From contig JAIXXV010000032.1 of the NCBI GenBank assembly GCA_027490575.1, positions 13,211 to 77,210 on the forward strand: DNA of 64,000 nt. Direction: 5' to 3'. A program made the position numbers and the translations under genes. Below the pieces are notes generated by a model that ran no database searches, had not been told where the DNA came from, and worked only from the letters and a program-made list of their open reading frames with translations. Shown here in pieces: positions 414 to 62,615 of this stretch (position 1 is its first letter; every line of letters begins with the position of its first letter). The stretch comes from a bacterium. GTDB taxonomy: Bacteria > Patescibacteriota > Minisyncoccia > Phycocordibacterales > CAIZLB01.

Positions 414-1541
414 ATGACAAATACAAAAGATTTGGAAAATGTGTCAGTTTCTAAAGAAGAAATGGCTCAGGCTCCCGTAAACCCAACGTACATGGGTAAA
501 CTATTAGCAGATACAGCCAATCCACCTAGTGTTGGAGACCTTGTAGAGGGTCCGGTTATCGCCATCGACAAAAAAGGTGTATTCATAGACCTGAAGCCGT
601 ATGGTACTGGTATTATCTTCGGAAGAGAGTACATCAACGCCAGAGATATCATCAGAAAGGTAAATGTTGGTGACAATATTGCCGCTAAGGTTGTAGAAAT
701 CAGTAATACTGATGGATACGTAGAACTTTCACTTAAAGAAGCTAAACAAGCCCTTATTTGGAATGAGGCTGAAGACGCTATCAAGTCAAAAGTCACATTT
801 GATATACCTGTACTTGAAGCAAACAAAGGAGGTCTACTACTATCATGGCAAGGTATTCACGGATTCCTTCCAGCATCTCAACTTAAAGCTGATCACTACC
901 CACGTGTAGAAGATGGTGATAAAGACAGAATCCTAGAAGAACTAAAAAAGCTTGTAGGCCAAAAGCTTTCAGTTACTATCATTGGTGCATCTCCAAAAGA
1001 AGGTAAACTTATCTTCTCTGAGAAAAACCCTGAGACTAAGGAGAAAGAACAAGCAGCTGGTAAGTACTCTGTAGGTGATGAAGTTGAAGGTACTGTTACA
1101 GGTGCAGTTGATTTCGGAGTCTTTATCAAGATAGAAGAAGGTCTAGAAGGACTTGTTCACATATCTGAGATAGACTGGGCACTTGTTGAGGACCCTAGAC
1201 TTCTATACAAAGTCGGAGACAAAGTTAAAGTTAAGGTTATAGAAATCAAAGACGGCAAGATATCTCTATCTATCAAGGCTCTAAAGGAAAATCCTTGGAA
1301 AGAAGCTGAGAAGAAATACAAGAAAGACGATATCGTTAAAGGTGTTGTTATCAAATTCAACAAGCACGGTGCACTTGCTAGTATCGAAGAAGGTGTTGCA
1401 GGACTTGTACACGTTTCAGAATTCGGTAGTGATATCAAACTTAGAGAAAAACTAGAGCTAGGAAAGATTTACACATTCAAGATCAATCTATTTGATGCAA
1501 AAGATCAAAAGATGGCGCTTGGGTTTGTCGACAAAAAATAA
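414..1541 (+). CDS. rpsA: 30S ribosomal protein S1 (four S1 domains, short form)
   Basis: 375 aa; repeated S1 OB-fold modules (GxV.G.V..i.dfGvFv.l..g.eGLvHiSEi); plausible promoter upstream. Confidence 0.9.
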   Translation: MTNTKDLENVSVSKEEMAQAPVNPTYMGKLLADTANPPSVGDLVEGPVIAIDKKGVFIDLKPYGTGIIFGREYINARDIIRKVNVGDNIAAKVVEISNTDGYVELSLKEAKQALIWNEAEDAIKSKVTFDIPVLEANKGGLLLSWQGIHGFLPASQLKADHYPRVEDGDKDRILEELKKLVGQKLSVTIIGASPKEGKLIFSEKNPETKEKEQAAGKYSVGDEVEGTVTGAVDFGVFIKIEEGLEGLVHISEIDWALVEDPRLLYKVGDKVKVKVIEIKDGKISLSIKALKENPWKEAEKKYKKDDIVKGVVIKFNKHGALASIEEGVAGLVHVSEFGSDIKLREKLELGKIYTFKINLFDAKDQKMALGFVDKK

Positions 1542-1567
1542 AAATCTTCGCAACTATTTTTAGAGAA

Positions 1568-1600
1568 CAAAACCTCGAAACAATCGGGGTTTTTGTTTTT
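1568..1600 (+). terminator. rho-independent terminator after rpsA
   Basis: Hairpin AAAACCTCG...CGGGGTTTT followed by TTTTGTTTTT. Confidence 0.5.
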
Positions 1601-1664
1601 CCTAATACTAGTAAATGCTATTTGATGGCCATATTTAAGCCCTATCTTGAGCCACATTTTGTAT

Positions 1665-1693
1665 TTGACAAGCCATATAGTGCTGGTATAATA
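1665..1693 (+). promoter_or_regulatory. near-consensus sigma70 promoter TTGACA-17-TATAAT
   Basis: TTGACA at 1665-1670, 17-bp spacer, TATAAT at 1688-1693; drives a roughly 340-nt unit ending at the terminator at 2001-2040. Confidence 0.55.
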
Positions 1694-2000
1694 CTATTCC
1701 AGTACAAGGCGCAAGTTTTGTACAACCTCAACAATTTAGAAGGTGTTCATGTGATCACCTTAGCACCCGAATTGAAAGGCGGGTTTGAACATTATGGCAG
1801 CCATGTTTAACGACGGAAGACCTATTCAAAACGTCTTCCAAGTAAGTCAGAGAGCATTGCTTTCGGAGGAAAGCCTACTTCTTGAAGAAATGAGAGAAGC
1901 ATCACTTGCTGATTTCCATCCAGTTCACGCTGGATTCGCTGGTGCCCTCGCACTAATTCTGGAGGTAGGTGCCGACGACAACGAACTCTGAGCCTCAAAA

Positions 2001-2040
2001 GCTCCCAATAGCCGACTCTCACCCTCGTGGTGGCAGTCGG
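2001..2040 (+). terminator. strong rho-independent terminator
   Basis: AGCCGACT...AGTCGGCT hairpin followed by TTTTTTTA. Confidence 0.65.
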
Positions 2041-2087
2041 CTTTTTTTATTTCCCAAAGATTGCTACTGGTCAGACTCACACTTAAA

Positions 2088-2699
2088 CTAACCCTGATTA
2101 AACTCACCCATTGCCTTTTCCCTACCTTCACTTATACACATGTAAATTGCTTCTGCGACTTTTTTTGATATTTTCTTTATCTCATCAAACTCAGCTGGCT
2201 TGAACTCACCTACTATAAAATCCATGATTTTATCTGAACCTGGCTTTTTGGGTTTACCAGAAGGAGTTGTTGGACATATGCCGACTTTTATTCTGGCAAA
2301 TGCTTCTGTCTTTATAGCTTTTTTTATTGACTCTATACCCCTGTGCCCACCTGATCCTCGATTGAAAAGTATTTTTATCTTTCCAATGGGCATATCTAGG
2401 TCGTCTTGCACGACTATCAGCTTTTCAGCTTTTTTTGCACTTGTCACCAAGGGTGCGACACTGGCACCAGACTTGTTCATATAGGTCTCAGGTAAAACGA
2501 GAGTGACTTTTTCTACACCTGTTTTTGCGTTTTCTGAATCAATCTCATCTTGAGAAATCATTGCCGAATACTTAGAACTTTTTACAAACTCAGGAAACTT
2601 ATACTTTTTTGCAAATTGTTCAACTCCAATACGACCAGCATTATGTCTGGTATTTTTGTACTCTTCACCTGGGTTTCCTAGTCCAACGACAATATACAT
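2088..2699 (-). CDS. pth: peptidyl-tRNA hydrolase
   Basis: N-terminal VVGLGNPG...NTRHNAG motif and overall Pth family length/profile. Confidence 0.9.
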   Translation of the reverse strand: MYIVVGLGNPGEEYKNTRHNAGRIGVEQFAKKYKFPEFVKSSKYSAMISQDEIDSENAKTGVEKVTLVLPETYMNKSGASVAPLVTSAKKAEKLIVVQDDLDMPIGKIKILFNRGSGGHRGIESIKKAIKTEAFARIKVGICPTTPSGKPKKPGSDKIMDFIVGEFKPAEFDEIKKISKKVAEAIYMCISEGREKAMGEFNQG

Positions 2700-2751
2700 A
2701 TTATTTTATTTATATTTTGATTATAACATAAAAGTGTAGTATCATGCTGAT

Positions 2752-3303
2752 ATGAGTTTTTTATCAAGACAATTTAAAGAGTGGCGTTATACGATTTTGC
2801 TTTTCATTGTATTGATATCTATCCGACTATTTGTTGCAGAGCCATTTCTAGTTTATGGAAGTTCTATGGATCCCACGTTTACATCCGGTGATTATCTGGT
2901 GGTTGATGAGATAAGTTACAAGCTAGAAAATCCAAAGAGAGGTGAAGTCATAGTTTTCATACCACCATATGACAACACCAGACATTTTATAAAAAGGATT
3001 ATAGGGCTTCCAGGTGAGACAGTTATAGTTGATGGTTCAGTTATAAAGATTATAAATGACCAGAATCCAAAAGGATTTATCTTGGATGAGCCATATGTAA
3101 AGTTCCAGAGCAATAGAAAATCCACAGTAAAACTCAGCGAAAATGAGTATTATGTGGCTGGTGACAACAGAAATGTCAGCTACGACTCTAGAAGCTGGGG
3201 TGCCTTGCCATCTGAGAATATTACTGGTAGAGCATTATTGAGATTGTATCCTTTCCAAAGTATAGGTATACTCCCTGGAAATGAGCACATTACGGCTGAA
3301 TAA
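2752..3303 (+). CDS. lepB: signal peptidase I
   Basis: N-terminal TM, GSSMDPT (catalytic Ser box), KRIIGLPGE (Lys box), GDNRNVSYDSRSWG box. Confidence 0.85.
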   Translation: MSFLSRQFKEWRYTILLFIVLISIRLFVAEPFLVYGSSMDPTFTSGDYLVVDEISYKLENPKRGEVIVFIPPYDNTRHFIKRIIGLPGETVIVDGSVIKIINDQNPKGFILDEPYVKFQSNRKSTVKLSENEYYVAGDNRNVSYDSRSWGALPSENITGRALLRLYPFQSIGILPGNEHITAE

Positions 3304-3432: not shown

Positions 3433-4713
3433 ATGGCTGAGAAGAAAACAAAAAGCAAAACTGACCAAAAAAACATTTTGACTGATAAAAACCCAATTTT
3501 CAAAGGACATGAACATGCAAGCCACACTGCAAAACACTATGGCTTTCACCCATTTGCAGGACTACAGGTAGAAAAACAAGACCTGGTAAAAGCTAAAAAC
3601 TTCAAAGATAGTAAGAAAACCGCCTTCAACGACAAGGACTCTCTTTTGAGTTTTGATAAGTTACTTGAAGAGAAGATTGCCATCATGAGAATGTATGTCG
3701 AGAAACAAATGGCTGACATTCATCAACCACCGATGATTTCATACAGTGGTCCTCTTACTGGAAACCCTCATGCATCTGATAAAACTAAACTCAAGACATT
3801 TAACCTTGATATAGTTGCCAATCCAAAAAGTATTGCCGATGCACTAGTTATCGAAACAGCTTTTGTTATTTTGAAAGAGCAGATTGATGCTGATTCTGAG
3901 TTAATGATTGAGATAAACTCTATTGGAGATAAAGAATCATTCCAAAAATTCACTAAAGACTTGATAGTATTTTCAAAAAAGAGAGCGCCGGATATGCCGA
4001 CTAGCATCAGGCAAGCATTTAAGAAAGACCCTTTTACTTTGTACTCATGTAAAGACGAAGAGTGTCTAGCTATACAAGAAGAGGCTCCAAAGCCCATGAG
4101 CTACCTTTCAGAAGAAAGTCGTGATCATTTTAGAGAAGTACTTGAGTATATTGAGTCATTGTCTATCCCCTACACCATCAATCATTCACTTATAGGCAGT
4201 AGACACTATTCTTCTGGGACAATATTTCAAATCGTGAAAGTTCCGAAAGCAGGCAAAGGTCCAAAAGATGGCAAGATAAAAAGAGAGGTATTGGCTATTG
4301 GCGAAAGATACAACAATGTATCAAAGAAAGCTTGGAACAAAAAAGAAGTTCCTGCTGTTGGTGTAACAATGCTAATAGATGAAAAAGCTATAAAGAATCT
4401 ACCACCAAAAAAGATTATCATTGAAGAGGCAAAGTTTTACTTTATACAGCTTGGTTATGATGCAAAGCTAAAGAGTCTTTCTATTATAGAAATGCTTCGT
4501 GTTGCAAATATCCCTGTTCATCAATCTCTATCTAGAGATAAGATAACGAGCCAGCTTGCTGCCGCGGAGAAACTAAACGTACCGTATATCATCTTGCTTG
4601 GCCAAAAGGAGGCTATAGAAAACAGTGTAACTATTAGACATGTCCAGACTAGAGTACAGGAAACAGTAAAACTCCATGAACTAGTGGATTATATAAAGAA
4701 ATTATTAAAATAA
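3433..4713 (+). CDS. histidyl-tRNA synthetase-like protein (class II HisRS/HisZ family) with retained anticodon-binding domain; catalytic motifs appear degenerate
   Basis: Strong similarity to the HisRS core (IEINSIG, SEESRDHFREVLEYIESLSIPYTINHSLIGSRHYS vs E. coli [42 protein letters not shown]); C-terminal HisRS-type anticodon-binding domain; motif-2 region reads GPLTGNPHASDKTKLKTF instead of GPMFRHERPQKGRYRQF; no RPEGTA loop. Confidence 0.6.
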   Translation: MAEKKTKSKTDQKNILTDKNPIFKGHEHASHTAKHYGFHPFAGLQVEKQDLVKAKNFKDSKKTAFNDKDSLLSFDKLLEEKIAIMRMYVEKQMADIHQPPMISYSGPLTGNPHASDKTKLKTFNLDIVANPKSIADALVIETAFVILKEQIDADSELMIEINSIGDKESFQKFTKDLIVFSKKRAPDMPTSIRQAFKKDPFTLYSCKDEECLAIQEEAPKPMSYLSEESRDHFREVLEYIESLSIPYTINHSLIGSRHYSSGTIFQIVKVPKAGKGPKDGKIKREVLAIGERYNNVSKKAWNKKEVPAVGVTMLIDEKAIKNLPPKKIIIEEAKFYFIQLGYDAKLKSLSIIEMLRVANIPVHQSLSRDKITSQLAAAEKLNVPYIILLGQKEAIENSVTIRHVQTRVQETVKLHELVDYIKKLLK

Positions 4714-4833: not shown

Positions 4834-5076
4834 ATGATAAACGTTAATATCCAGAAGAACCCAACAGAAAGTGCTGCTTCTATTTTGAGAAGATTTACTA
4901 AGAAAGTACAAGAGTCAGGTGTACTTAACAGAGTTAGATCTATCAAATACGCAGAGAGAAACCTTTCATACTACAAAAAGAAAAAAGGTGCTCTTGAAAA
5001 GCTTAAAAGACAACTTGAAAGAGAGAACTTGATCAAGCTTGGAAAACTCACAGTTGTTACAAGAAAAGGTAGATAG
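4834..5076 (+). CDS. rpsU: 30S ribosomal protein S21
   Basis: 80 aa basic protein; LRRFTKKVQESGVL...KYAER matches the S21 core (RRFKR..EK.G.L.E.RRR..YEKP). Confidence 0.85.
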   Translation: MINVNIQKNPTESAASILRRFTKKVQESGVLNRVRSIKYAERNLSYYKKKKGALEKLKRQLERENLIKLGKLTVVTRKGR

Positions 5077-5164
5077 TTGGTCACTAGATAACTAAGTTCA
5101 CTTATCTAGTATAAGTGTCTTCAAGCCTTAGTGCTGTCTAAAAGTCATAGTCAAAGTTACAATT

Positions 5165-5569
5165 ATGAATACTTTATACACACAAGACACATTCGAAATA
5201 TCTACAACCGTAAAAAAGGCGCCTAAGATTGATGGCGCTCTTTTTTATAAGTTAAAAAACCATGTTTTAGGTAAGAACTATGACCTGAGTTTTGTTTTTA
5301 TCGGACAAAAGCGTATGAGACACCTGAATAACACTCATAGACGAAAAGATTATGCGACTGATATTTTGAGTTTTACTATTGATAATGAGAACGGAGAAAT
5401 ATTTATTTATCCAAAAAAAGCAGAACAAAAATCAAAAGATTTTGATAAAACTTTTAAAGAATATTTACCTTTTTTATTTATCCACGGGTTAATGCATTTG
5501 AAAGGATTCGAACATGGTAGTATTATGGATAGTGAAGAAGCTCGAGTTAGAAGCTTGTTCAAAGTTTAA
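5165..5569 (+). CDS. ybeY: rRNA maturation endoribonuclease YbeY
   Basis: HGLMHLKGFEH zinc-binding HxxxHxxxxxH motif at the C-terminus; 134 aa. Confidence 0.85.
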   Translation: MNTLYTQDTFEISTTVKKAPKIDGALFYKLKNHVLGKNYDLSFVFIGQKRMRHLNNTHRRKDYATDILSFTIDNENGEIFIYPKKAEQKSKDFDKTFKEYLPFLFIHGLMHLKGFEHGSIMDSEEARVRSLFKV

Positions 5570-5593
5570 ATAATCTTTTCAAGAAATATACAA

Positions 5594-6781
5594 ATGGCAT
5601 TAGGTCGAAATACAGCTGTCGGCATTGACGTAGGAACTCATCAAGTAAAAGTGATCGTCGGTGAATCTGACCCTAAAAATGAAAAATCTATGCCTCGAAT
5701 CATTGGCTCTGGTATCGCAGAATCAAAAGGTATTCGTCATGGATTTGTAACAAACGTTGATGATATTGCAAAGAGTATCAGGACAGCGGTATCTATGGCC
5801 GAGAAATCATGTGGTTCCCCTATCAAAAAAGCCTATATATCAGTAGGTGGTGTAGGACTAGGTGCCATCATATCTTTTGGAAGTGTAGCAACCACCAAAG
5901 CAGACTCAGAGATCACAGAGCTAGATATCAAACGTGCCATAGAGGAGAGCGAAAAGGAGCTACCAAACACATACATACAAAACAGAAAGATTATACATAC
6001 AGTACCGCTCGAGTTTAGAGTAGACGGAAAAAGGATACTGGGCAGACCTGTTGGCCTAAAGGGCGTCAAACTAGAAGTGAAAGTTTTATATATCACATGT
6101 CTATCGCACCACCTCAACGACTTACTATCTGCATTTGACGAAGCAGACATAGAAGTTCTAGACGTCACAGCTTCACCTATAGCAGCAAGTCTTGTCACCC
6201 TAAGTAAAACTCAAAAGATTGCAGGTTGTATACTAGCTAACATTGGCGCTGAGACTACATCTATCATAGTATTTGAAAACAACACACCAGTTTCTATGGA
6301 GGTATTTCAGATAGGTTCAAATGATATAACCAACGACTTGGCATTAGGTCTCAAGATATCAATAGAAGAAGCCGAGGATATAAAGCGAGGTACAGGACGC
6401 ATTGGAGAATTTTCAAAAAGAAAGATTGAGGAAATCATCGTCGCTCGTCTATCAGACATATTTGACCTAATAGAAGATCACCTAAAACGTATAGATAGAA
6501 ACGGCCTACTTCCAGCAGGTATCATCATGACAGGTGGAGGATCAAATATCCACAGTATCGAAGAGTTAGCAAAAGTAACACTTAGACTACCTTCAAAACA
6601 ATCAAGGCTGCGCTTCGAAGGAAACATAAAAAACATGCAAAATGACACTGAATGGGCGGTTTGCTATGGTTTAGCCCTTTTGAACCTTACAGACACTCCA
6701 GGAGACGATTTTAAGCCTTTAAACGAGTTTAAAAAGGTCAGTAGATTCATGATTAGATTCTTTAAGAAGTTTCTACCTTAG
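5594..6781 (+). CDS. ftsA: cell division protein FtsA
   Basis: Actin-like ATPase fold (GIDVGT...; IMTGGGS) and the ftsA-ftsZ gene order. Confidence 0.85.
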   Translation: MALGRNTAVGIDVGTHQVKVIVGESDPKNEKSMPRIIGSGIAESKGIRHGFVTNVDDIAKSIRTAVSMAEKSCGSPIKKAYISVGGVGLGAIISFGSVATTKADSEITELDIKRAIEESEKELPNTYIQNRKIIHTVPLEFRVDGKRILGRPVGLKGVKLEVKVLYITCLSHHLNDLLSAFDEADIEVLDVTASPIAASLVTLSKTQKIAGCILANIGAETTSIIVFENNTPVSMEVFQIGSNDITNDLALGLKISIEEAEDIKRGTGRIGEFSKRKIEEIIVARLSDIFDLIEDHLKRIDRNGLLPAGIIMTGGGSNIHSIEELAKVTLRLPSKQSRLRFEGNIKNMQNDTEWAVCYGLALLNLTDTPGDDFKPLNEFKKVSRFMIRFFKKFLP

Positions 6782-7058
6782 TTACATAGGGCTACTTGTT
6801 GCACCTTGGCATATTTAGACGTCCTTTACATGTCTTTTAAAATACTTATATTTTAGGCAATACTTTGCCATTATTGTCGCCTTTTACATTTAAAATGGTA
6901 GTGGTATTATTGTCTCATATTAACCAGTGCGGTTGATTTGTCTGTTTGACTTTTACATGCTAGAAAAAACTTTATAAATAATTCATTATTTATAAGTATC
7001 ATTGTGTATGACAAGTTTAAGACATTGTCCGTAATTATTTCAGAATTTTATAAATACT

Positions 7059-8315
7059 ATGCCTCAAGTAAAACCAGAAATAGAAACATTCGCTAGAATC
7101 AAAGTCATCGGTATCGGTGGCTCAGGAAAAAACGCAACTAATCACATGATTAATGCGAAAGTTAAAAGTGTAGACTTCTTAGCTATCAATACTGATGCTC
7201 AAGATCTACACCACTCACTTGCAAAGAAAAAAATTCACATTGGAAAAAATCTAACACGAGGACTAGGTGCTGGTATGAATCCTGAAGTAGGTAAAAGAGC
7301 TGCTGAAGAAACAAAAGAAGAGATTCAAGAGGCTTTGAAAAACTCTGACATGGTGTTTGTTGCTGGAGGTCTAGGTGGTGGTACTTGTACTGGTGCTTCC
7401 CCTATCGTAGCAAAGATTGCTAGAGAGATGGGTGCTTTGACTATCGGTGTAGTTACAAAACCTTTCATGTTCGAAGGTCAATCTCGTATGAGACTTGCAG
7501 ACCAAGGCCTAGAAGAACTAAGTAAAGCCGTTGACGCTCTAGTAGTTATCCCTAACGACAAGCTTCTAGCCGCAGTTGGCAAAGACACTACTGCAAAGCA
7601 AGCTTTCAGTATGTGCGATGAGGTTCTTAGACAAGCAGTAGAGGGTATTTCAGACCTTATCACTATGCCTGGTACAGTCGGAAACATTGACTTTGCTGAC
7701 ATCAGAGCGGTCCTAGAGGACGCTGGATCAGCACTTATGGGTATTGGTAGTGCTAGTGGTGAAAAGAGAGCTGAGGAGGCCGCTAAAGCCGCTATCAGTT
7801 CCCCACTTATCGATATTTCTATCCATGGTGCCAAAGGAGTACTATTCTCTATCGCATCTGGAGACGACCTCACTATGTGGGAGATCCAGGAAGCTGCCAA
7901 GATCATTACTGACTCAGTTGATCCAAATGCCAAGATTATCTTCGGTACTGTAAAAGACGAAAAGCTCAAGAAAAATGAAATAAAGATCACTGTTATCGCC
8001 GCCAACTTCCCTGATTCATCAGCTTCTAGGAGATCATTTTCTATGAATCCAACTCAAGTAGTAGAGAGAGAAGAGATTGTTGAACCAAAAAGAGGTATAT
8101 TCAACTCATTTGGAGGAGGTTCATCTTCACAACCAGTACAGCAACAACCTCAGCCAGAACAAGCACCTGCTCCAGCTCCAGTGCACACACCTACTCAAGC
8201 AAGCCCTATAGTGGAGACAAAGCGCACTGAGGCTCCTACACCTATACAGACAGTACAAGATGATGACGACGAATGGGGTGCTGTGCCAGCGTTCCTAAGG
8301 AGAAGTAAGAAGTAG
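7059..8315 (+). CDS. ftsZ: cell division GTPase FtsZ
   Basis: IKVIGIGGSGKNA, GLGAGMNPEVG, GGLGGGTCTGASP tubulin signature; disordered tail ending in the conserved DDDEWGAVPAFLRR peptide. Confidence 0.95.
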   Translation: MPQVKPEIETFARIKVIGIGGSGKNATNHMINAKVKSVDFLAINTDAQDLHHSLAKKKIHIGKNLTRGLGAGMNPEVGKRAAEETKEEIQEALKNSDMVFVAGGLGGGTCTGASPIVAKIAREMGALTIGVVTKPFMFEGQSRMRLADQGLEELSKAVDALVVIPNDKLLAAVGKDTTAKQAFSMCDEVLRQAVEGISDLITMPGTVGNIDFADIRAVLEDAGSALMGIGSASGEKRAEEAAKAAISSPLIDISIHGAKGVLFSIASGDDLTMWEIQEAAKIITDSVDPNAKIIFGTVKDEKLKKNEIKITVIAANFPDSSASRRSFSMNPTQVVEREEIVEPKRGIFNSFGGGSSSQPVQQQPQPEQAPAPAPVHTPTQASPIVETKRTEAPTPIQTVQDDDDEWGAVPAFLRRSKK

Positions 8316-8321
8316 TATTAA

Positions 8322-8410
8322 TAATAACCTTTTTCAAGAGAACAGAGATTTTCTGCTGAAAATCTCTTCTGTTCGTTACAACTACCAAGTCTCTTGAAAA
8401 AGGTTATTAT
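8322..8410 (+). repeat. nested inverted repeat immediately after ftsZ (20-bp outer stem enclosing a 10-bp inner hairpin)
   Basis: Outer AATAACCTTTTTCAAGAG / CTCTTGAAAAAGGTTATT; inner CAGAGATTTTC / GAAAATCTCTTCTG. Confidence 0.45.
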
Positions 8411-8523
8411 TTTATATACAAAAGGAGACAACCGACACTTGCAACTCGCAAGCCTATCTAAAACACTTGTTTATCATTTAATGACAAGAACATTTGAAAC
8501 AACAATATTTACTGAATAAAAAA

Positions 8524-8570
8524 GAAGCTGGTGGGTTTGATTACCCTACCAGCTTTTTGATTTTGATTTT
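8524..8570. terminator. bidirectional rho-independent terminator
   Basis: AGCTGGTGGGT...ACCCTACCAGCT hairpin flanked by an A-run upstream and a T-run downstream; sits between convergent ftsZ and the 8574-8954 ORF. Confidence 0.5.
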
Positions 8571-8573
8571 TGG

Positions 8574-8954
8574 TCAAGTGAAAGAACTTGCTGAGGAGCG
8601 GGATCTTTTGATAAAAACCAGCCTGCTAACAACTTGACCCAAGTACATAGCAGAAAAGGCCAGCATCATCCCTACAAATGAAGATATTGTTCGACTAAAA
8701 GCTATAACAACATCAGAATACGTGTATCCTAACTTGTGATACAAATCAAAAATACCAAGGTCTTTTGTCACCCTCCCGCCTGTCTCCTGCATTATATACA
8801 TGTAGATATACGGGTATCCGATATAGCTTTGGAAAATCCTGTATCCATTGTACCAAAGGCACAAAAATACAAGACAAATAATCACCTTGGCCAAATTGAT
8901 TGTGGTTGCTGTGACAAGTGGTTTATCCTCCATCAGGAATCGATGCTTGCTCAT
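8574..8954 (-). CDS. hypothetical small membrane protein
   Basis: 126-aa ORF with hydrophobic segments; followed by a terminator; no recognisable family. Confidence 0.35.
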   Translation of the reverse strand: MSKHRFLMEDKPLVTATTINLAKVIICLVFLCLWYNGYRIFQSYIGYPYIYMYIMQETGGRVTKDLGIFDLYHKLGYTYSDVVIAFSRTISSFVGMMLAFSAMYLGQVVSRLVFIKRSRSSASSFT

Positions 8955-9162
8955 ATTATATTAATTTTGGTTTTAATTTTGGTTTTTGAATTAGCGTTGT
9001 TTTTTATATTATTGTTTTTATTATTTTACTTGTGCTTGTTTATAGTTGTCTTTGTATGAAAATGTGCATTTAAATATGCATAGGAACAAAGAACAAAACT
9101 GCAATGAGAGTACATCTGTTATGGTACAAAATCAAGTGACGTGGTGACGAAAAAATTATATA

Positions 9163-10143
9163 ATGTGCTTTATGAATTCTTCAGAAAATATTTATGATCT
9201 TATCATTATTGGTGGTGGTCCTGCAGGCGTTGCAGCAGGTGTTTATGCATCTCGTAAAAAGCTTCGCACGCTCTTTTTGACAACAGACTTTTTAGGACAG
9301 AGCTCTGTTTCAGAAGGCATTGAAAACTGGATTGGTACTATCAAGATTAGTGGCACAGATCTATCAAAAGACCTTGAGGCTCATTTGCGTGCCTATGCTG
9401 GCGATATTGTGGATATAAAGACAGGTATATGGGTTAAGGATATCAAAAATCTCTCAGAACCTTCGCCTGCATCTACCCTATTTGAAGTAACAACAAAAGA
9501 CTATTCAGAAAAAGAAAGCTCGTACAAAGGCAAGACGGTACTTATAACCACTGGTAGTACACGTCGAAAACTTCCAGCTAAAAATGCTGATGTATTTGAG
9601 CATAAAGGTCTTACTTATTGTGCAACTTGTGATGGGCCTATCTTCTCTGGACAAGATGTTGCAGTCATCGGTGGAGGTAACGCTGCTTTTGAAAGTGCGG
9701 CTCAACTCGCTGCTTACTGTAAATCAGTGACTATAGTTAACCGTACTGACAAGTTTAGAGCTGACCCTGTTACAGTTGAGAAAGTTTGTGCTATGCCAAA
9801 CATGAAGGTTGTGACAGGTGTAGTTGTCGAAGAAATACTTGGAGATAAGTTTGTCAGTGGTTTTACATACAAAAAAGACGGATCAGATGTACTCGAGACA
9901 CTAGCGGTTACCGGTATCTTTGTGGAGATAGGACTAATACCAAACACTAGTTTCGCAAAGGAGGTAGTAGAGATAGACGCATATGGAAAGATAGCCGTTG
10001 ACCCTCGAACACAACAGACCAAAACAGCTGGCATATGGGCAGCTGGTGACTGTACAGATGGACTTTACCACCAAAACAACATTGCAGCAGGTGATGCAGT
10101 GAAGGCTTTGGAAGATATATATGTGAATTTGTTTACGAGGTAA
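9163..10143 (+). CDS. trxB: thioredoxin-disulfide reductase
   Basis: FAD motif IIGGGPAG, redox CATC motif, NAD(P)H motif VIGGGNAA, C-terminal GIWAAGDC. Confidence 0.9.
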   Translation: MCFMNSSENIYDLIIIGGGPAGVAAGVYASRKKLRTLFLTTDFLGQSSVSEGIENWIGTIKISGTDLSKDLEAHLRAYAGDIVDIKTGIWVKDIKNLSEPSPASTLFEVTTKDYSEKESSYKGKTVLITTGSTRRKLPAKNADVFEHKGLTYCATCDGPIFSGQDVAVIGGGNAAFESAAQLAAYCKSVTIVNRTDKFRADPVTVEKVCAMPNMKVVTGVVVEEILGDKFVSGFTYKKDGSDVLETLAVTGIFVEIGLIPNTSFAKEVVEIDAYGKIAVDPRTQQTKTAGIWAAGDCTDGLYHQNNIAAGDAVKALEDIYVNLFTR

Positions 10144-10361: not shown

Positions 10362-11222
10362 ATGCAAAGCGAATTAGAAAAACAAGTAGAAGGAGCAGAA
10401 GATGGTGCAGAAAAAGACGAAATCGACTCGAGCATCTCGAGTGAGGTAGTTACCACGACAACAACAGCGCAAGGTGTCAAGCTTACCGAGCGAGAGCTCA
10501 GGATGCTGTTTGTCAGGACAAATCTGATTGACGACCTTGTCATGAGTATCGCAGGGAAAGTCCCTAAGAATGAAAAGGATGCCGGCCGGATCAAGAAACT
10601 CATTATTGCGACTCCTGCACAAATCTTGATCTTTGTTATCATTATGATACTGGCAATATTCACAATTTCGTCAGCGAAACATCTTGATCAACTATTCACA
10701 GGGACTGTGTCCAGTGCACTACTCAGTGTATCAGCAATCATGCTAGTTTTTTCCATCATCTTCACGTTGATTTCTGCGATTCGATGGTGGTATGACTACA
10801 AAAAAGAGCAGATTGACGGTTTGAAGAAGGTTGAACTCTTCATCGAGCACTTCCTCGATTCAATCATCCCAATAGAACGAGTCGATCAGGATAAAGTAAT
10901 CCATGAACTAGATGAGTTCGTCTTGGAAAGACTAACAAAAGTCTATCTTCATCTGCAAGCATATGTGGAATATTGCTCTATAAATCACATGATTTCTGTG
11001 TACGGTGTTCCGGAAAATTACGCTGAGTACGAAGAAGAGTGTGAAGTCATGTTTGATATTGCAATTAAAATTGGATGGAGCGTTGGAAATATTAGCCATT
11101 CAAGAGGTCGAATTGCAGGTGCTATCAAACGTCGAATCGATGAACTTGGAGGAGACGGTCTCTGGTCTAATACCTACTACCAGAGATGTGTTCATGGGCA
11201 CACTTGGATATTCCCAACATAA
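10362..11222 (+). CDS. hypothetical membrane protein (2 predicted TM helices), GC-richer than surroundings
   Basis: 286-aa ORF with a good AGGAGG RBS; two long hydrophobic helices; no family recognised. Confidence 0.5.
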   Translation: MQSELEKQVEGAEDGAEKDEIDSSISSEVVTTTTTAQGVKLTERELRMLFVRTNLIDDLVMSIAGKVPKNEKDAGRIKKLIIATPAQILIFVIIMILAIFTISSAKHLDQLFTGTVSSALLSVSAIMLVFSIIFTLISAIRWWYDYKKEQIDGLKKVELFIEHFLDSIIPIERVDQDKVIHELDEFVLERLTKVYLHLQAYVEYCSINHMISVYGVPENYAEYEEECEVMFDIAIKIGWSVGNISHSRGRIAGAIKRRIDELGGDGLWSNTYYQRCVHGHTWIFPT

Positions 11223-11448: not shown

Positions 11449-12249
11449 ATGAGGGGCCGACACTTCTCGCACTCAAATACAATGAAACTCAGTGAAATCA
11501 ACTACCGCTTTACAGTCGAACCTGTATTGAGACTAATCCAATCCATGATGAAAAATGGCAATTACATCACTCCACAGAGCTCAAGCAGAACTCTGTCGAT
11601 GATGTTTTGGCTAAATTCGTCCATACGAAACGAGCTGATGCAATGGACTTTCAAAATTGGTCCATCGTGGCCAGAAGATCCAAATCCTCTAAAATCAATT
11701 ACAGGCGCAATGATTGCATTCATCATTGCATTAGCAGCAGGAGTGGCGCAGTACTTATTTCCAAATTTAGTACCATTTTTGATCATTTTCTTGCCCTCAG
11801 CAGTACTGTGTATTTACTGGACCACACTGTCTTTAGCCGCTGTGGTAGTCAGAATCAAAAAAGCATGCTTTCTTACTGACTTTATCAACATAGTTGGTAC
11901 AATACCGCTAATAAGGAGGCAGCATCTCATAAACCCTGGACATCGTGAAAGTAGCTATGATTACCTTGTCGTGGTGATGCTTTTGCAACAACTCATGAGT
12001 GTTTCCAAAAAGGTCAAAGGTAATACTGAAGACCCGAAGCTAAAAGATGAAGAGAAAAGGCTATATGACTCAGCCTTCAAACTTGGTGTACTAGGAGATG
12101 ACATCTCGGCCGTATACACGTTGGTATATCGGTTGATTGAGGAAAAGGAGCAAGGTAAACCTATAGGATCGGGTCAAAATAGCGGCGGAGATGGAGACGG
12201 CTTTCCAGAACCTGACCCAGACGCACTCCCGACAAGCGTCCTTGGTTAA
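11449..12249 (+). CDS. hypothetical multi-pass membrane protein (alternative start at 11482)
   Basis: 266-aa ORF with several hydrophobic helices; shares a 5' leader motif GAGGGGCCGACA with the preceding gene; C-terminal Gly/Asp-rich tail. Confidence 0.45.
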   Translation: MRGRHFSHSNTMKLSEINYRFTVEPVLRLIQSMMKNGNYITPQSSSRTLSMMFWLNSSIRNELMQWTFKIGPSWPEDPNPLKSITGAMIAFIIALAAGVAQYLFPNLVPFLIIFLPSAVLCIYWTTLSLAAVVVRIKKACFLTDFINIVGTIPLIRRQHLINPGHRESSYDYLVVVMLLQQLMSVSKKVKGNTEDPKLKDEEKRLYDSAFKLGVLGDDISAVYTLVYRLIEEKEQGKPIGSGQNSGGDGDGFPEPDPDALPTSVLG

Positions 12250-19947: not shown

Positions 19948-20050
19948 GTACTAATTATACTCCTATTGATCGAAATTGTTATTAAGTAATAAATATGGCA
20001 TTATGTTTTATCTAAATAAATTGGCTTTTGCCGTAGCCTGTAAGCACCAA

Positions 20051-21379
20051 ATGACTAAAAACAAGGATAAATTGAGAATATTATCAATAGAAACCAGCTG
20101 TGACGAGACAGCAGTTTCAATAATAGACGCTGAAGGAGGTGTTGATACACCTGTTTTCAAAGTTCTTGGAAATGCACTCTACTCACAAATAGACTTACAT
20201 GCCGAATACGGTGGTGTATTCCCGATGCTTGCCAAAAGAGAGCATGGTAAAAATCTGGTTCCACTACTTGATCAAGCAGTTGATATTGCTTTAAAATCAG
20301 CTGACATAACTGACAGTACTGCACAATCCACAGAATCACAAAACTCATTCACAAACCTCACCGAGCAAACTACTCTCATCACAAGCATCCTAGAGAAAGA
20401 GCAAGGTCTATCAGAGACTCTACTAAAATACCTTGAAGAAAATATAAATAAATTATCAAGTTTAAATATAGATTATATTGCGGTAACAAAAGGACCAGGG
20501 CTTGAACCCGCTCTTTGGGTAGGTATTAGTTTTGCAAAAGCACTTTCTATAGCTGTGCAAAAACCATTGATACCTATAAATCACATGGAAGGTCATATTG
20601 TTTCTGTTTTGACTGACGATACTCTGAACGGAGCCCCTAGCGACTCGGTAGAGCACAGAGTAAACTTCCCCGCTCTCGCATTACTAATCTCTGGTGGCCA
20701 CACCGAGCTAGTAGAATGCAAAAACTGGAATGAATACAAGATAATCGGACACACTGTGGATGATGCTATAGGTGAAGCCTTCGACAAAGTAGCTAGACTC
20801 ATCGGTATACCATATCCCGGTGGACCAGTCATATCAAAGCTTGCAAAGGAAAGTCGAGATCAAGACACAACTGCTGAATACGAAAGAACTCATGGAAACA
20901 GACCATGGTCACTCCCTCGACCAATGATACATAGTAAGGATTTAAACTTTTCGTTTTCAGGTATCAAGACCGCTGTTCTATACGCTGTTAGGGAAAAAAC
21001 AGCACAATCAAAGGGTGCAGAACTATCGGACACTGACAAAAAAACATTAGCAGAAGAATTTGAAAATGCTGTAACTGAAGTTATTATCAAAAAAACTGAA
21101 AGGGCCATTGAACAAACTCACTCCGAAACACTCATAGTGGGTGGCGGTGTTATTGCAAATACATACATACGAAATGAACTGAAAAAAATGATTTCAGAAA
21201 AGTTCTCACATGTATCACTTTTGATACCGACCCTTGATATGACAACAGATAACTCAGTCATGATTGGAGTTGCTGGGTATTTGAAAGCTATTTCTAAACC
21301 TGAAAACATCATCCTGCCTGGTGATATAGAAAAACTCACTGCACTTGGTGCCAAAGGTAGTCTTGGACTAGAAGAATAA
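20051..21379 (+). CDS. tsaD: tRNA N6-adenosine threonylcarbamoyltransferase TsaD (Kae1/YgjD family) with insertions
   Basis: LRILSIETSCDETAVSI N-terminus, metal-binding His pair region; start taken at MTKNKDKL (the ORF track begins 25 codons earlier at 19976). Confidence 0.8.
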   Translation: MTKNKDKLRILSIETSCDETAVSIIDAEGGVDTPVFKVLGNALYSQIDLHAEYGGVFPMLAKREHGKNLVPLLDQAVDIALKSADITDSTAQSTESQNSFTNLTEQTTLITSILEKEQGLSETLLKYLEENINKLSSLNIDYIAVTKGPGLEPALWVGISFAKALSIAVQKPLIPINHMEGHIVSVLTDDTLNGAPSDSVEHRVNFPALALLISGGHTELVECKNWNEYKIIGHTVDDAIGEAFDKVARLIGIPYPGGPVISKLAKESRDQDTTAEYERTHGNRPWSLPRPMIHSKDLNFSFSGIKTAVLYAVREKTAQSKGAELSDTDKKTLAEEFENAVTEVIIKKTERAIEQTHSETLIVGGGVIANTYIRNELKKMISEKFSHVSLLIPTLDMTTDNSVMIGVAGYLKAISKPENIILPGDIEKLTALGAKGSLGLEE

Positions 21380-21771: not shown

Positions 21772-22009
21772 ATATTCTATTAATTATGTAATAAATCTAT
21801 CTATTTACAAATATATGTATTAATGATATAATATAGGCACTTTTGGTTTAGTTAAAAGCTTCCCTTTTGTCTAAAGGTGAGCTCATAAGCCCAAGGTATT
21901 GTTCATTGAAAAGTATAAGGTGGCGCATTAGTCATCTTTACCAAAAAACAAAAAAGAAAGGATTAGAAAAGTGAAATCATTAAGGCAACTAAGTGTTGAG
22001 GTGAAAAAA

Positions 22010-23038
22010 ATGGGCCGTGAACTCAGAGTGGTCACCCACGACGGCATGAGCCATCCAGATGAAGCATTTGTACTCGCCATGATCAAGTGGCTCTGTATCA
22101 ATGTTTTGAATGTCAAATACAAATTCAAACGCACACGGGATCCAGGCCTCATAAATGCTGCGGACATTGCAATCGATGTCGGCAACGTTTATGACCCTGA
22201 GCATTTCCGGTACGATCATCACGGTCCAGAAGGTGCTGGAAGGCGTCCTGAAAAGGCAGGTCACCAAGGAATCAGCTACTCTTCTTTCGGGATCTTTTGG
22301 AAAGATCATGGTCTAGAATTCGTATCAGGTGTCGTAAAAAAGCTTACTGATTACGAAATTCCAACATGGATACTTGAAAAAGCCGTTGGAGAAGTCGACA
22401 GAAATCTGGTTGAAGGGACATGCGCCTTAGATACCGGAGAAGCGAAGGTCAGGTCAAACAACATCAGAGTACCTTCGTTGCATTCAGCTTTTTCAGTAAT
22501 AAACCCGACGTGGATTGAGGCTTCCGGAAAAGATGCACGTGACAACGCGCTCTGGAACTCTCTTCCTATGATGGGTGACATACTGATTGGCTACATCATG
22601 AGGTCGGTCGAACATCACTACTCCGAAAGCTACGTGATGCAAGGAATCAATTCATGTCGTGACGGGATCTTGGTACTCAAAACACCGACCCAGGCATGGA
22701 GAAGACTTGTCAACAAATCAAGACGAGGGAATGAAATCCTTACTGTGGTTCAGCCACAGATGGATGACGCTCAAACTTGGTGTGTTCATGCGGTAGAGGA
22801 TGGAGAAGGTACTCTGAGGATTCGCTTTCCTGAAGAGTGGGGTGGTCTGGAGCAAGATAGCTTGCGTAGTGTCACTGGTAACGAAAAAGTAACCTTTGTA
22901 CACACAGCGGGTTTTATCGCTGCAGCTGAAGACAAACAAAGCGCGATTATGTTAGCAAAGCTGGGTATCGCCAAGTATCAAAAAGAAGACGAATACGAAG
23001 GGGCAGGTTTGGATTCAGAAACTGCTACCGTAAACTAA
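22010..23038 (+). CDS. MYG1-family (UPF0160) metal-dependent hydrolase/exonuclease
   Basis: VVTHDGMSHPDEAFV...IDVGNVYDPEHFRYDHHG matches the MYG1 signature (THxGxFHADEA...DVGG.YDP...RYDHHQ); start at MGRELRV with a GAGGTG RBS. Confidence 0.7.
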   Translation: MGRELRVVTHDGMSHPDEAFVLAMIKWLCINVLNVKYKFKRTRDPGLINAADIAIDVGNVYDPEHFRYDHHGPEGAGRRPEKAGHQGISYSSFGIFWKDHGLEFVSGVVKKLTDYEIPTWILEKAVGEVDRNLVEGTCALDTGEAKVRSNNIRVPSLHSAFSVINPTWIEASGKDARDNALWNSLPMMGDILIGYIMRSVEHHYSESYVMQGINSCRDGILVLKTPTQAWRRLVNKSRRGNEILTVVQPQMDDAQTWCVHAVEDGEGTLRIRFPEEWGGLEQDSLRSVTGNEKVTFVHTAGFIAAAEDKQSAIMLAKLGIAKYQKEDEYEGAGLDSETATVN

Positions 23039-35398: not shown

Positions 35399-35446
35399 AA
35401 CTGTTAACTGCTATCTGATATCTGTCATCTGACACCTGTTAAGCTA
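35399..35446. repeat. 7-nt periodic array (CAG phase on the minus strand)
   Basis: Plus strand CTGTTAA CTGCTAT CTGATAT CTGTCAT CTGACAC CTGTTAA between the nusB-nudix stop and rnc. Confidence 0.6.
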
Positions 35447-41563: not shown

Positions 41564-43405
41564 ATGAATAAAGATAACCAAGAAGCGCAAAGCGCTCAAA
41601 ACATAGAACATATTCGCCATTCCCTAGCCCACCTATTGGCGACGGCGACCTTGGAAATCTTTCCTGACACTCTTTTGACTATAGGCCCTGCCGTGGACGA
41701 TGGATTCTACTATGATATGGATTTTCAAAAACCTCTTGTTGAGAGTGACCTAAAAAGTATAGAGGAAAAGATGGGGGATATTTTGAAACAATGGTCTAAA
41801 CTACCCGATGGAGAAAGAGGTTTCAGACACAAGGAGGTTTCAGTCGATGAGGCTCGAGCACTTTTTGCCAACAACCATTACAAGCTAGAGCTTATAGAAG
41901 ACATCGCCAAAAAAGGTGAAGCTATCACTTTATATACATGTGGTCACAGTATAGATACTTCTGCGCAACCAACGCATCCTAAAAATCACATTCCCGAATT
42001 TACAGACTTATGCCGTGGAGGACATGTTGAAGACTTGTCAGAGATTGATCCAAAATCATTTAAGCTAACTCGTATTGCAGGAGCATACTGGCGAGGTGAT
42101 GAAAAGAACAAGATGTTAACTAGAGTTTACGGTATTGCTTTTGGAAGTAAAGACGAACTTCAAGCGTATATAACTCAACAAGAAGAAGCTAAAAAGAGAG
42201 ATCATAGAAAACTCGGACGCGAACTAAAACTTTTCACTATATCTGATCTTGTAGGATCTGGCCTTCCCCTTTTCCAACCAAAAGGTACAGTGCTCAGAAA
42301 AGCACTTGAGGATTATCTATGGGAACTACATGAACCTAGAGGCTACAGCAGAGTATGGACACCTCACCTTGCAAAAGCTGACCTATATATGACATCAGGT
42401 CACGGTATGCACTATCTTGCGGATATGTTCTCAGTACATGGTGGTACTAGTAAAGAAGACTTCTATGTAAAACCTATGAACTGTCCTCACCACATGCAGT
42501 TGTTTGCTGACAATCAGTTTTCATACAGAGATATGCCTGTAAGATACTTCGAACCTGCTACAGTATATAGAGACGAAAAAACGGGACAACTAGGAGGTCT
42601 TACTCGTGTGCGTTCAATCACCCAAGACGATGGCCACCTTTTCTGCAGAGTATCTCAACTTCACGAAGAAGCGTCTAGTATAGTTGATATCATTAAAACT
42701 TTTTATGGGACTATGGGAATGCTCGATGGTTACAAAGTCCGTCTATCACTACGAGGCGACGACAAAGAAAACTATTTAGGGAGCGATGCGGTTTGGGAAA
42801 CAGCTGAAAACGCACTGACTGAAGTATGTAAAAGCAAAGACCTTCCTTATTTCGAAGGTAAAGGTGAGGCGGCTTTCTACGGACCAAAGCTAGACTTCAT
42901 GTTCAAAGATGCTATCGGCCGTGAGCACCAACTGGCAACTGTACAGTGTGATTTCAACTTACCTGAGAGGTTCGATTTGTCATTTGTTAACGAGAAAGGC
43001 GAAAAAGAAAGACCTGTCGTTATCCACCGAGCAATATCAGGTTCACTAGAGAGATTCTTAGGAGTAATGATAGAGCACTTTGCAGGAGCATTCCCACTTT
43101 GGATGTCACCCGTTCAAACAAAAGTCGTACCTATTGGCGAAAGACAATTTGAGTATGCACAAGAAGTTCAACAGCAACTGCGTGCGAAAGGTATCAGATC
43201 AGAAGTAGATCTGTCTGGAGACTCATTAGGTAAAAAAATCCGTAATGCAAAAACTGAAAAAATTCCATATGTACTCGTACTAGGAGACAAAGAGGTTGAA
43301 ACAAAAACTGTGACTATCGAAAGTAGAACTGGCAATGAAGGTGCTGTTTCTGTTGAAGACTTTTTGGTGAGATTGAAGAGTGAGATTGATGGCAGGGAGT
43401 TATAA
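41564..43405 (+). CDS. thrS: threonyl-tRNA synthetase (lacks the N-terminal TGS domain)
   Basis: Editing-domain HxxxH (HSLAHLL), class II motifs (FRDE..., TRVRSITQDDGHLF, GGLGRE-like) and a C-terminal anticodon-binding domain. Confidence 0.9.
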   Translation: MNKDNQEAQSAQNIEHIRHSLAHLLATATLEIFPDTLLTIGPAVDDGFYYDMDFQKPLVESDLKSIEEKMGDILKQWSKLPDGERGFRHKEVSVDEARALFANNHYKLELIEDIAKKGEAITLYTCGHSIDTSAQPTHPKNHIPEFTDLCRGGHVEDLSEIDPKSFKLTRIAGAYWRGDEKNKMLTRVYGIAFGSKDELQAYITQQEEAKKRDHRKLGRELKLFTISDLVGSGLPLFQPKGTVLRKALEDYLWELHEPRGYSRVWTPHLAKADLYMTSGHGMHYLADMFSVHGGTSKEDFYVKPMNCPHHMQLFADNQFSYRDMPVRYFEPATVYRDEKTGQLGGLTRVRSITQDDGHLFCRVSQLHEEASSIVDIIKTFYGTMGMLDGYKVRLSLRGDDKENYLGSDAVWETAENALTEVCKSKDLPYFEGKGEAAFYGPKLDFMFKDAIGREHQLATVQCDFNLPERFDLSFVNEKGEKERPVVIHRAISGSLERFLGVMIEHFAGAFPLWMSPVQTKVVPIGERQFEYAQEVQQQLRAKGIRSEVDLSGDSLGKKIRNAKTEKIPYVLVLGDKEVETKTVTIESRTGNEGAVSVEDFLVRLKSEIDGREL

Positions 43406-61100: not shown

Positions 61101-61147
61101 AACAGATAACAGTTGGTAATTATCAGGTGACAGTTAGCAGTTAGGTG
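61101..61147 (+). repeat. 7-nt periodic CAGNNNN array
   Basis: CAGATAA CAGTTGG TAATTAT CAGGTGA CAGTTAG CAGTTAG overlapping the helicase stop codon region. Confidence 0.55.
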
Positions 61148-62610: not shown

Positions 62611-62615
62611 TCAAT

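Follow-up and report, generated by a model that had tools for sequence, protein, structure and literature searches.

We examined a 64-kb stretch of a patescibacterial contig (JAIXXV010000032.1; below, the window) and concentrated on an open reading frame (ORF) at 3433..4713 on the forward strand. It encodes 426 amino acids plus a stop codon and was found exactly as the initial annotation had described it, as a gene for a protein resembling histidyl-tRNA synthetase (HisRS, the product of hisS). It lies between two syntenic blocks. The upstream block (414..3303) consists of an S1-domain protein (414-1541, forward strand), pth (2088-2699, reverse strand) and lepB (2752-3303, forward strand), and the downstream block (4834..10143) of rpsU (4834-5076), ybeY (5165-5569), ftsA (5594-6781), ftsZ (7059-8315) and a trxB-like gene (9163-10143), all on the forward strand. 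In related Parcubacteria of the candidate phyla radiation (CPR), canonical hisS is found in the order Lactamase_B-S1-pth-lepB-hisS-rpsU-ybeY-ftsA-ftsZ-trxB (loci L005, L007, L009, L014 and L016). Throughout, canonical and degenerate denote the two groups of hisS-related sequences separated by the active-site score described below, and the product of the degenerate gene is called pseudo-HisRS.

The upstream order S1-pth-lepB is common to canonical loci L005, L007 and L014 and degenerate loci L001, L004 and L011, while the slot between lepB and rpsU-ybeY-ftsA-ftsZ is occupied by the degenerate gene in the window, L001, L004, L011 and L013. Scanning GTDB with one genome per species, we found 365 genomes that encode a relative, and the best 80 loci comprised 74 degenerate and 6 canonical ones. 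Exactly one HisRS homologue was present at each of these 80 loci, and for 68 of the 74 degenerate loci the neighbours of the slot were recognizable on both sides or the end of the contig was reached. Since the 426-amino acid gene fills the exact slot of canonical hisS in related CPR genomes, we regard it as the positional ortholog of hisS and not, as had been proposed, as a paralog. The canonical enzymes nearest to the family (P0191, P0242 and P0254) all sit in the same slot too, which makes them orthologs from other lineages and not second copies. The cell-division and ribosome operon, previously taken as a functional hint, is thus a context inherited from canonical hisS and carries no information on a new role.

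Identities across the nine syntenic genes set hisS apart. Between canonical lineages hisS ranks near the top, at 81% (neighbours 63-82%), and within the degenerate clade it is ordinary, at 77% against 64-88% for its neighbours. When the window is compared with canonical lineages, it is the least conserved of the nine (37-38%, against 41-65% for the eight neighbours). Judged by these identities, the degenerate lineage went through a gene-specific burst of divergence in hisS. The operon itself is not invariant. Five further canonical loci (L080, L084, L085, L086 and L089) keep upstream neighbours, namely pth in all five and S1 and lepB in L085, L086 and L089, and BLAST searches with the window proteins did not find rpsU-ybeY-ftsA-ftsZ downstream of any of them. 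In the lineages of L080, L086 and L089, for which about 10 kb of downstream DNA was covered, the operon appears to be broken downstream of hisS.

At the level of the protein family, pseudo-HisRS from the window is clearly homologous to HisRS and falls well short of the criteria for the enzyme. It scored 123.4 bits on the NCBIfam hisS model TIGR00442, below the curated cutoff of 286.75, while its canonical CPR relatives reach 366-433 bits. A Pfam scan returned the C-terminal HGTP_anticodon domain (2e-14) only, with no match to the catalytic-core families PF13393 or PF00587 and no other domain. Its best relative of solved structure is HisRS from Staphylococcus aureus (E 1e-25), and the HisRS fold, comprising the class II core, the insertion domain and the C-terminal anticodon-binding domain (ABD), is present and was modelled with confidence by AlphaFold2. 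The exact 426-amino acid protein was found again on seven independent contigs. Relative to the 98%-identical ortholog in L001, the gene shows 149 synonymous and 13 nonsynonymous differences, giving a ratio of nonsynonymous to synonymous rates (dN/dS) of 0.012; along the protein, dN/dS falls from 0.026 (N-terminal half) through 0.009 (middle) to 0.003 (ABD), and for essential neighbouring genes it ranges from 0.013 to 0.055. The protein is under very strong purifying selection.

The family is large and confined, as far as its members are named, to one part of the bacterial tree. The protein matches more than 2000 clusters (90% identity) in which the ORF is intact, and all named cluster members belong to the Patescibacteria/CPR (Taylorbacteria, Pacebacteria and Parcubacteria). 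An exhaustive search of 1.84 billion representatives gave 380 clusters (50% identity) at E<=1e-30 from Paceibacteria, Taylorbacteria and Nomurabacteria. The only canonical sequences among the top 150 relatives were P0191 and P0254, which score 366 and 433 bits on TIGR00442, and the N-terminally truncated P0242. For the comparisons that follow we used 121 canonical CPR HisRS sequences, 119-121 close degenerate members and a broad degenerate set of 152. In neighbour-joining trees the degenerate group was monophyletic (28 of 30 bootstraps) and nested within canonical CPR HisRS, so that the degenerate clade probably has a single origin. Root-to-tip lengths were equal between the groups in a tree of the ABD only (3.15 canonical, 3.23 degenerate), while those of the catalytic part were ~60% longer in the degenerate group (2.21 vs 1.37).

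The naming of these genes and genomes in public databases is inconsistent. JGI labels the protein 'histidyl-tRNA synthetase', and NCBI labels it 'His/Gly/Thr/Pro-type tRNA ligase C-terminal domain-containing protein' or 'hypothetical'; because of this conflict, pipelines that count HisRS or take it as a marker will handle the clade inconsistently, and metabolic reconstructions, completeness marker sets and HisRS phylogenies will be misled for it. Many records of metagenome-assembled genomes (MAGs) with the Paceibacteria-type locus (L020, L022, L025 and others) are titled 'uncultured Candidatus Saccharibacteria bacterium' (TPA_asm), and their gene order and sequences match Paceibacterota/Taylorbacteria, so these labels look generic or wrong. 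The literature that we searched contained no earlier description of this family.

To describe the former active site we used the numbering of Escherichia coli HisRS, for which our reference sequence agrees with the published numbering, and scored 14 active-site residues from alignments to a hidden Markov model (HMM) of canonical CPR HisRS. The score was bimodal. Canonical enzymes keep 13-14 of the 14 residues, and the 152 degenerate sequences keep 0-8 with a mode of 2-4, the survivors differing among sublineages. The arginines of motif 2 and motif 3 are universal in class II aminoacyl-tRNA synthetases (aaRSs), and R259 is specific to HisRS; none of R113, R259 and R311 is kept in 104 of the 152 degenerate sequences or in 56 of the 74 degenerate GTDB loci. 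The inactivated-looking catalytic core reported from the single sequence is therefore a property of the family, and the HMM alignment of motif residues, which had been suggested as a check, revealed no new conserved polar constellation in their place.

A disordered basic tail (aa 1-22, 3433..3498, forward strand), with a predicted local distance difference test score below 50, replaces the canonical N-terminal P-x-G-M-x-D motif, and none of seven canonical-conserved columns is kept there. In about one third of close relatives the tail is expanded into a Lys-rich (24% K) low-complexity segment of up to ~95 amino acids. The two groups have the same basic charge over their first 25 residues (0.24 vs 0.24); the extensions stand out by their length and composition. 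The class II core keeps 21% of canonical-conserved columns in its N-terminal half (aa 23-130, 3499..3822, forward strand), which carried motif 1, the histidine-binding loop and motif 2. This half is the most conserved part of canonical CPR enzymes and the least constrained structured region of the degenerate family, with mean pairwise identities of 0.84 and 0.52, respectively.

Within this half, the histidine-binding loop (canonical L-R-P-E-G-T) is represented by F74-DKLLEEK-81 (3652..3675, forward strand), in which E83 is kept as E79, T85 has become K81, and G84 has become E80, which does not vary in the close family. The remnant of motif 2 (aa 103-128, YSGPLTGNPHASDKTKLKTFNLDIVA; 3739..3816, forward strand) lacks F112 and R113. 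Here R113 is Gly or deleted, E115 is Gly or Pro, Q118 is His, and R121 and R123 are lost. The peptide that the initial annotation quoted for both lost elements does belong to the motif-2 region, but it is not the RPEGTA loop, whose counterpart is DKLLEEK. In a working HisRS the motif-2 loop binds ATP and the acceptor end of the tRNA; in the family it has accumulated indels, and other members carry large basic insertions in it. Among the latter, P0153 (576 aa) and P0231 (471 aa) have large insertions of basic low-complexity sequence inside the former loop.

Further downstream, the HisA remnant (aa 253-260, 4189..4212, forward strand) reads LIGSRHYS where canonical enzymes have LVRGLDYY; R259 is Gly in 121 of 121 close members and Y264 is replaced by Ser, Cys or Ala in the family. 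With Q127 changed to Thr, Ile or Val, the only histidine ligands that remain are E83 and an acidic residue at 131. The segment G-E-R-Y-N (4300..4314, forward strand), which had been read as part of motif 3, is instead the HisB motif (canonical GGRYD). It is invariant in the close family, with G286 changed to Glu and D289 to Asn, and its G and R are conserved family-wide. The motif-3 remnant proper (aa 307-317, PAVGVTMLIDE; 4351..4383, forward strand) keeps G304, and R311 has become Glu, Asp, Ala or a gap, with no Arg in the close family.

Across the broad degenerate family 38 columns are conserved at 85% or more, all with the canonical residue (one I to L); none of them lies in aa 1-124, and none at this threshold is a new family-wide polar residue replacing the catalytic ones. 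As read from these alignments, the ligands of ATP and histidine, the three catalytic arginines and the residues that dock A76 and C74 are gone. One slot gene, P0202 (L011/L012), is half-degenerate. It has 6 of the 14 active-site residues and still obtains a Pfam tRNA-synt_His match; R113, Q127, E131, Y264 and GGRFD are kept, while RPEGT has become HPDGR, E115 Thr, R259 Lys and R311 Thr. P0202 may show decay at an early stage, or it may have been inactivated separately.

The ABD presents the opposite picture. It spans aa 334-426 (4432..4710, forward strand; the Pfam HGTP_anticodon match given above), keeps 62% of canonical-conserved columns and has a mean pairwise identity that is nearly equal in the family (0.74) and in canonical enzymes (0.76). 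We mapped onto it the contacts between HisRS and tRNA-His reported for Thermus thermophilus (Tt), in which E386/D387/E388 read G34, K397 reads G36 and Q404 reads U35 (PMC4357726). The G34 reader corresponds to Q391-K392-E393 (4603..4611, forward strand), which is invariant: the three residues occur in 121, 120 and 121 of the 121 canonical sequences and in 119/119 close degenerate ones, and the Glu in 151/152 of the broad set. At the G36 reader, R402 (4636..4638, forward strand), Arg is found in 121/121 canonical, 119/119 close degenerate and 149/152 broad sequences, and at the U35 reader, Q409 (4657..4659, forward strand), Gln is found in 121/121, 119/119 and 151/152, respectively. The acceptor end was also covered by the T. 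thermophilus work, which found E64 and E114 absolutely essential for aminoacylation and R120 to read C74 (PMC4357726). These contacts (Tt E64, E114, Q117, R120 and R122), present in 114-121 of the 121 canonical sequences, are lost in the family. The suggestion that recognition of tRNA-His has been retained is thus borne out at the sequence level, both by the mapped anticodon readers and by the constraint on the domain as a whole.

The insertion domain (aa 165-245, 3925..4167, forward strand) is moderately conserved (identity 0.58 in the family, 0.69 in canonical enzymes), and N162, G165, D166, P219, L225, R230, H232, E235, E238 and E241 are conserved family-wide with the canonical residue. In this domain of canonical CPR-type HisRS (L005, L007, L014 and others), seven Cys reach a conservation of at least 90%, at E. 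coli positions 173, 193, 196, 210, 215, 230 and 233. They suggest a cluster for metal binding, which is missing from E. coli HisRS. The equivalent columns in the window protein are 169, 189, 192, 206, 211, 226 and 229, of which it keeps only C206 and C211; most of these Cys are replaced by Ser or Pro in the degenerate family.

The loss of catalytic and acceptor-end residues together with the retention of the anticodon readers indicates that pseudo-HisRS is probably a non-enzymatic tRNA-His-binding protein. The question that arises is how tRNA-His is charged in hundreds of Paceibacteria species whose only recognizable hisS ortholog has lost the universal class II catalytic residues. His makes up 1.83% of 353k residues encoded in degenerate-clade loci and 1.85% in canonical-clade loci (p=0.49), and given this normal usage a competent tRNA-His-charging activity must exist. 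Erosion of aaRSs is not genome-wide, since the window also encodes a normal ThrRS, our class IIa control (41564..43405, forward strand; Pfam tRNA-synt_2b 143 bits, HGTP_anticodon and tRNA_SAD), and a normal LeuRS (24083-26560). Replacement of native TyrRS and TrpRS by lateral transfer, including archaeal cases, has been described in CPR lineages (PMC5370408). With lateral replacement of aaRSs documented in the CPR, we favour the reading, which we hold to be somewhat more probable than all others together, that a dead hisS ortholog has been kept as a tRNA-His-binding protein and that a replacement HisRS, as yet unseen, is encoded elsewhere.

On this reading the loss of aminoacylation chemistry from hisS would go back to the ancestor of a large subclade of Paceibacteria. 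The ABD would capture the GUG anticodon of tRNA-His, and non-specific grip on the rest of the tRNA would come from the class II scaffold and the insertion domain and, in many members, also from the polylysine tail. The pocket, now remodelled, would neither make His-AMP nor transfer histidine nor position A76, and the protein would serve as a sensor, buffer or adaptor that acts on tRNA-His stoichiometrically. Charging would be encoded elsewhere in the genome, most simply by a laterally acquired or relocated HisRS.

Several results count against this interpretation. We detected no second HisRS in the window by TBLASTN and a CPR-specific HMM, none within 10 kb past the end of the window, and none in 1.08 Mb of DNA flanking the 74 degenerate loci. 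The flanks amount to ~1.5 genome-equivalents, from which about 1.5 captures would be expected were a second gene placed at random distance, and with conserved synteny making the samples non-independent this null result is only mildly informative. No tandem or nearby canonical copy was seen beside P0202 or P0237 or in the 80 GTDB loci, and every canonical CPR-type hisS examined lay in the slot, with no sign of a relocated copy. The lengths of the longest contigs of 120 listed degenerate clusters and of 120 listed canonical CPR HisRS gave no match that would place both genes on one contig; as both lists are small samples from families of thousands of clusters, this says little. A 426-amino acid non-enzyme in a ~0.7-Mb genome demands an important function, and we can name none. 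On the technical side, monophyly depends on neighbour-joining trees, a method prone to long-branch attraction, and indels make the residue-by-residue alignment of the motif-2 loop uncertain; tRNA binding, catalytic inactivity and the oligomeric state of pseudo-HisRS have all been inferred from sequence. As to the RNA partner, no tRNA-His gene was present among 99 tRNAs in 1.5 Mb of examined DNA, and an Rfam scan of the window returned two tRNAs only and no known RNA element near the gene.

The absence of a second HisRS from the window, the 10 kb beyond it and the flanks of the 74 loci would also be expected if the clade lacks any homologous HisRS and tRNA-His is charged by a non-homologous, repurposed, imported or host activity, with pseudo-HisRS serving as its recognition subunit or adaptor. 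Anticodon specificity kept alongside a dismantled catalytic site is how such an adaptor should look; strong selection has kept the dead gene in place across the clade as sampled, and His decoding is normal. However, no candidate partner was found in the DNA searched, which covers ~10% of any single genome, and lateral replacement by an ordinary HisRS, for which the CPR offers precedents with other aaRSs, is simpler. We also know of no precedent for non-homologous displacement of HisRS. We consider this explanation unlikely.

The same failure to find a second HisRS in the searched DNA lends something to the alternative that the initial annotation had itself raised, in which the 426-amino acid protein is still the organism's only HisRS, either with a non-canonical active site or with a low efficiency that slow-growing symbionts tolerate. 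The gene is in the hisS slot, its anticodon readers are intact, purifying selection extends to the core (the N-terminal half included), and in 0.7-Mb genomes economy favours one gene over two. There is moreover a close subfamily in which the pocket residues E79, E80, G110-N111, G255 and GERYN are invariant. These residues, however, are not conserved in the broad family, where the motif-2 loop carries indels and no family-specific polar residue reaches 85%, and no structured region is under less constraint than the half that held the active site. R259 and the arginines of motifs 2 and 3 are gone, as are the counterparts of the essential Tt E64 and E114, and normal His usage argues against a crippled enzyme. 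With no new conserved catalytic constellation to be seen and essential acceptor-end contacts lost, the evidence from the core speaks against a sole, divergent HisRS, and we judge it distinctly improbable.

A role as a HisZ-like regulatory subunit of ATP phosphoribosyltransferase is very improbable. The protein had been contrasted with HisZ from the start, and we can confirm the contrast: there was no match to TIGR00443, HisZ-type NCBIfam models gave 12-19 bits against cutoffs of 450-643 (NF008940, 18.6 bits against 450), the ABD is intact, constrained and anticodon-reading, and by position the gene is orthologous to hisS. Neither hisG nor any other histidine-biosynthesis gene was among the neighbours listed, and neither the window nor the flanks yielded a second hisS. 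Finally, a decaying pseudogene or an artefact of assembly or annotation, which the lost catalytic motifs and the NCBI names 'hypothetical' and 'domain-containing' might bring to mind, is refuted by the dN/dS of 0.012 and by the breadth of the family (more than 2000 intact clusters); the recovery of the exact protein on seven contigs and the confident AlphaFold2 fold also speak against it.

Comparison with known systems helps to place the dead, tRNA-binding ortholog that we favour. Its immediate relatives are the class IIa HisRSs of CPR/Parcubacteria (TIGR00442; PF13393 plus PF03129; P0191, P0322 and P0351), with which it shares the slot, the three-part architecture, 37-39% identity, the constraint on the ABD, the readers of G34, U35 and G36 and the G-x-R-Y core of HisB. 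Unlike them it lacks R113, E115, R121, Q127, R259, Y264, R311, the acceptor-end contacts and P-x-G-M-x-D, has the active-site half as its least conserved part, and in many members carries a Lys-rich tail.

Gcn2's HisRS-like domain is a pseudoenzyme whose structures are available (PDB 8T7T and 9C9Q); it keeps HisB, no longer has the Arg and Tyr-Tyr of HisA and does not bind ATP or histidine (PMC11363354). Pseudo-HisRS resembles it in having the HisRS fold, loss of the ATP and histidine ligands and a retained HisB. The Gcn2 domain, however, is eukaryotic and part of a multidomain eIF2-alpha kinase, while pseudo-HisRS is bacterial and stand-alone with no effector domain. The ABD of Gcn2 is without anticodon-decoding side chains and binds tRNAs generically, whereas pseudo-HisRS keeps every tRNA-His reader and, unlike the Gcn2 domain, arose in situ from the organism's own hisS. 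By analogy, we infer that pseudo-HisRS may be a bacterial stand-alone counterpart of the Gcn2 domain, specific for one tRNA. Its unusual features would be this origin from the organism's own essential synthetase gene and the retained specificity for a single tRNA.

HisZ (TIGR00443; PDB 1USY, 1Z7M and 3OD1) is a true paralog that coexists with hisS and partners HisG in histidine biosynthesis; its ABD has no anticodon-reading role, while that of pseudo-HisRS is intact and the gene has no hisG context. The accessory subunit of DNA polymerase gamma, derived from GlyRS, likewise keeps an HGTP ABD. It is eukaryotic and mitochondrial, and binds DNA and the polymerase and not a specific tRNA, as pseudo-HisRS presumably does.

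If the favoured reading holds, pseudo-HisRS would offer a minimal natural system for the repurposing of a synthetase scaffold to the sensing or handling of a tRNA. The charging of tRNA-His in these bacteria would be explained either by lateral replacement, which would add to the archaeal TyrRS and TrpRS cases in the CPR, or by something unprecedented. Should there be no homologous HisRS, these would be the first free-standing bacterial cells in which HisRS has been outsourced or displaced non-orthologously.

We noted several other genes in the window. Downstream of the trxB-like gene are two adjacent ORFs of 286 and 266 amino acids (10362-11222 and 11449-12249, both on the forward strand) without significant family match, and L001 has similar-sized ORFs (286 and 264 aa), with no Pfam match on record, at the same place. 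A homologue of TsaD, which acts in t6A synthesis, is encoded at 19976-21379 (forward strand); its TsaD domain begins at residue 146, leaving an N-terminal extension of ~145 amino acids, and as the ORF starts with TTG the true start may lie further downstream. A homologue of the MYG1/UPF0160-family exonucleases (155 bits) is encoded at 21971-23038 (forward strand). The protein encoded at 35439-36362 (reverse strand; 307 aa) looks unusual in that an N-terminal NusB domain (aa 7-137) is fused to a C-terminal NUDIX hydrolase (aa 172-285). At 61141-63764 (reverse strand), a PIF1-like helicase (489 aa) has as its upstream partner a protein of 382 amino acids with sub-threshold Pfam matches only, and the pair is conserved in a Logan contig and in the NCBI MAG GCA_027484805.1 (L100 and L101).

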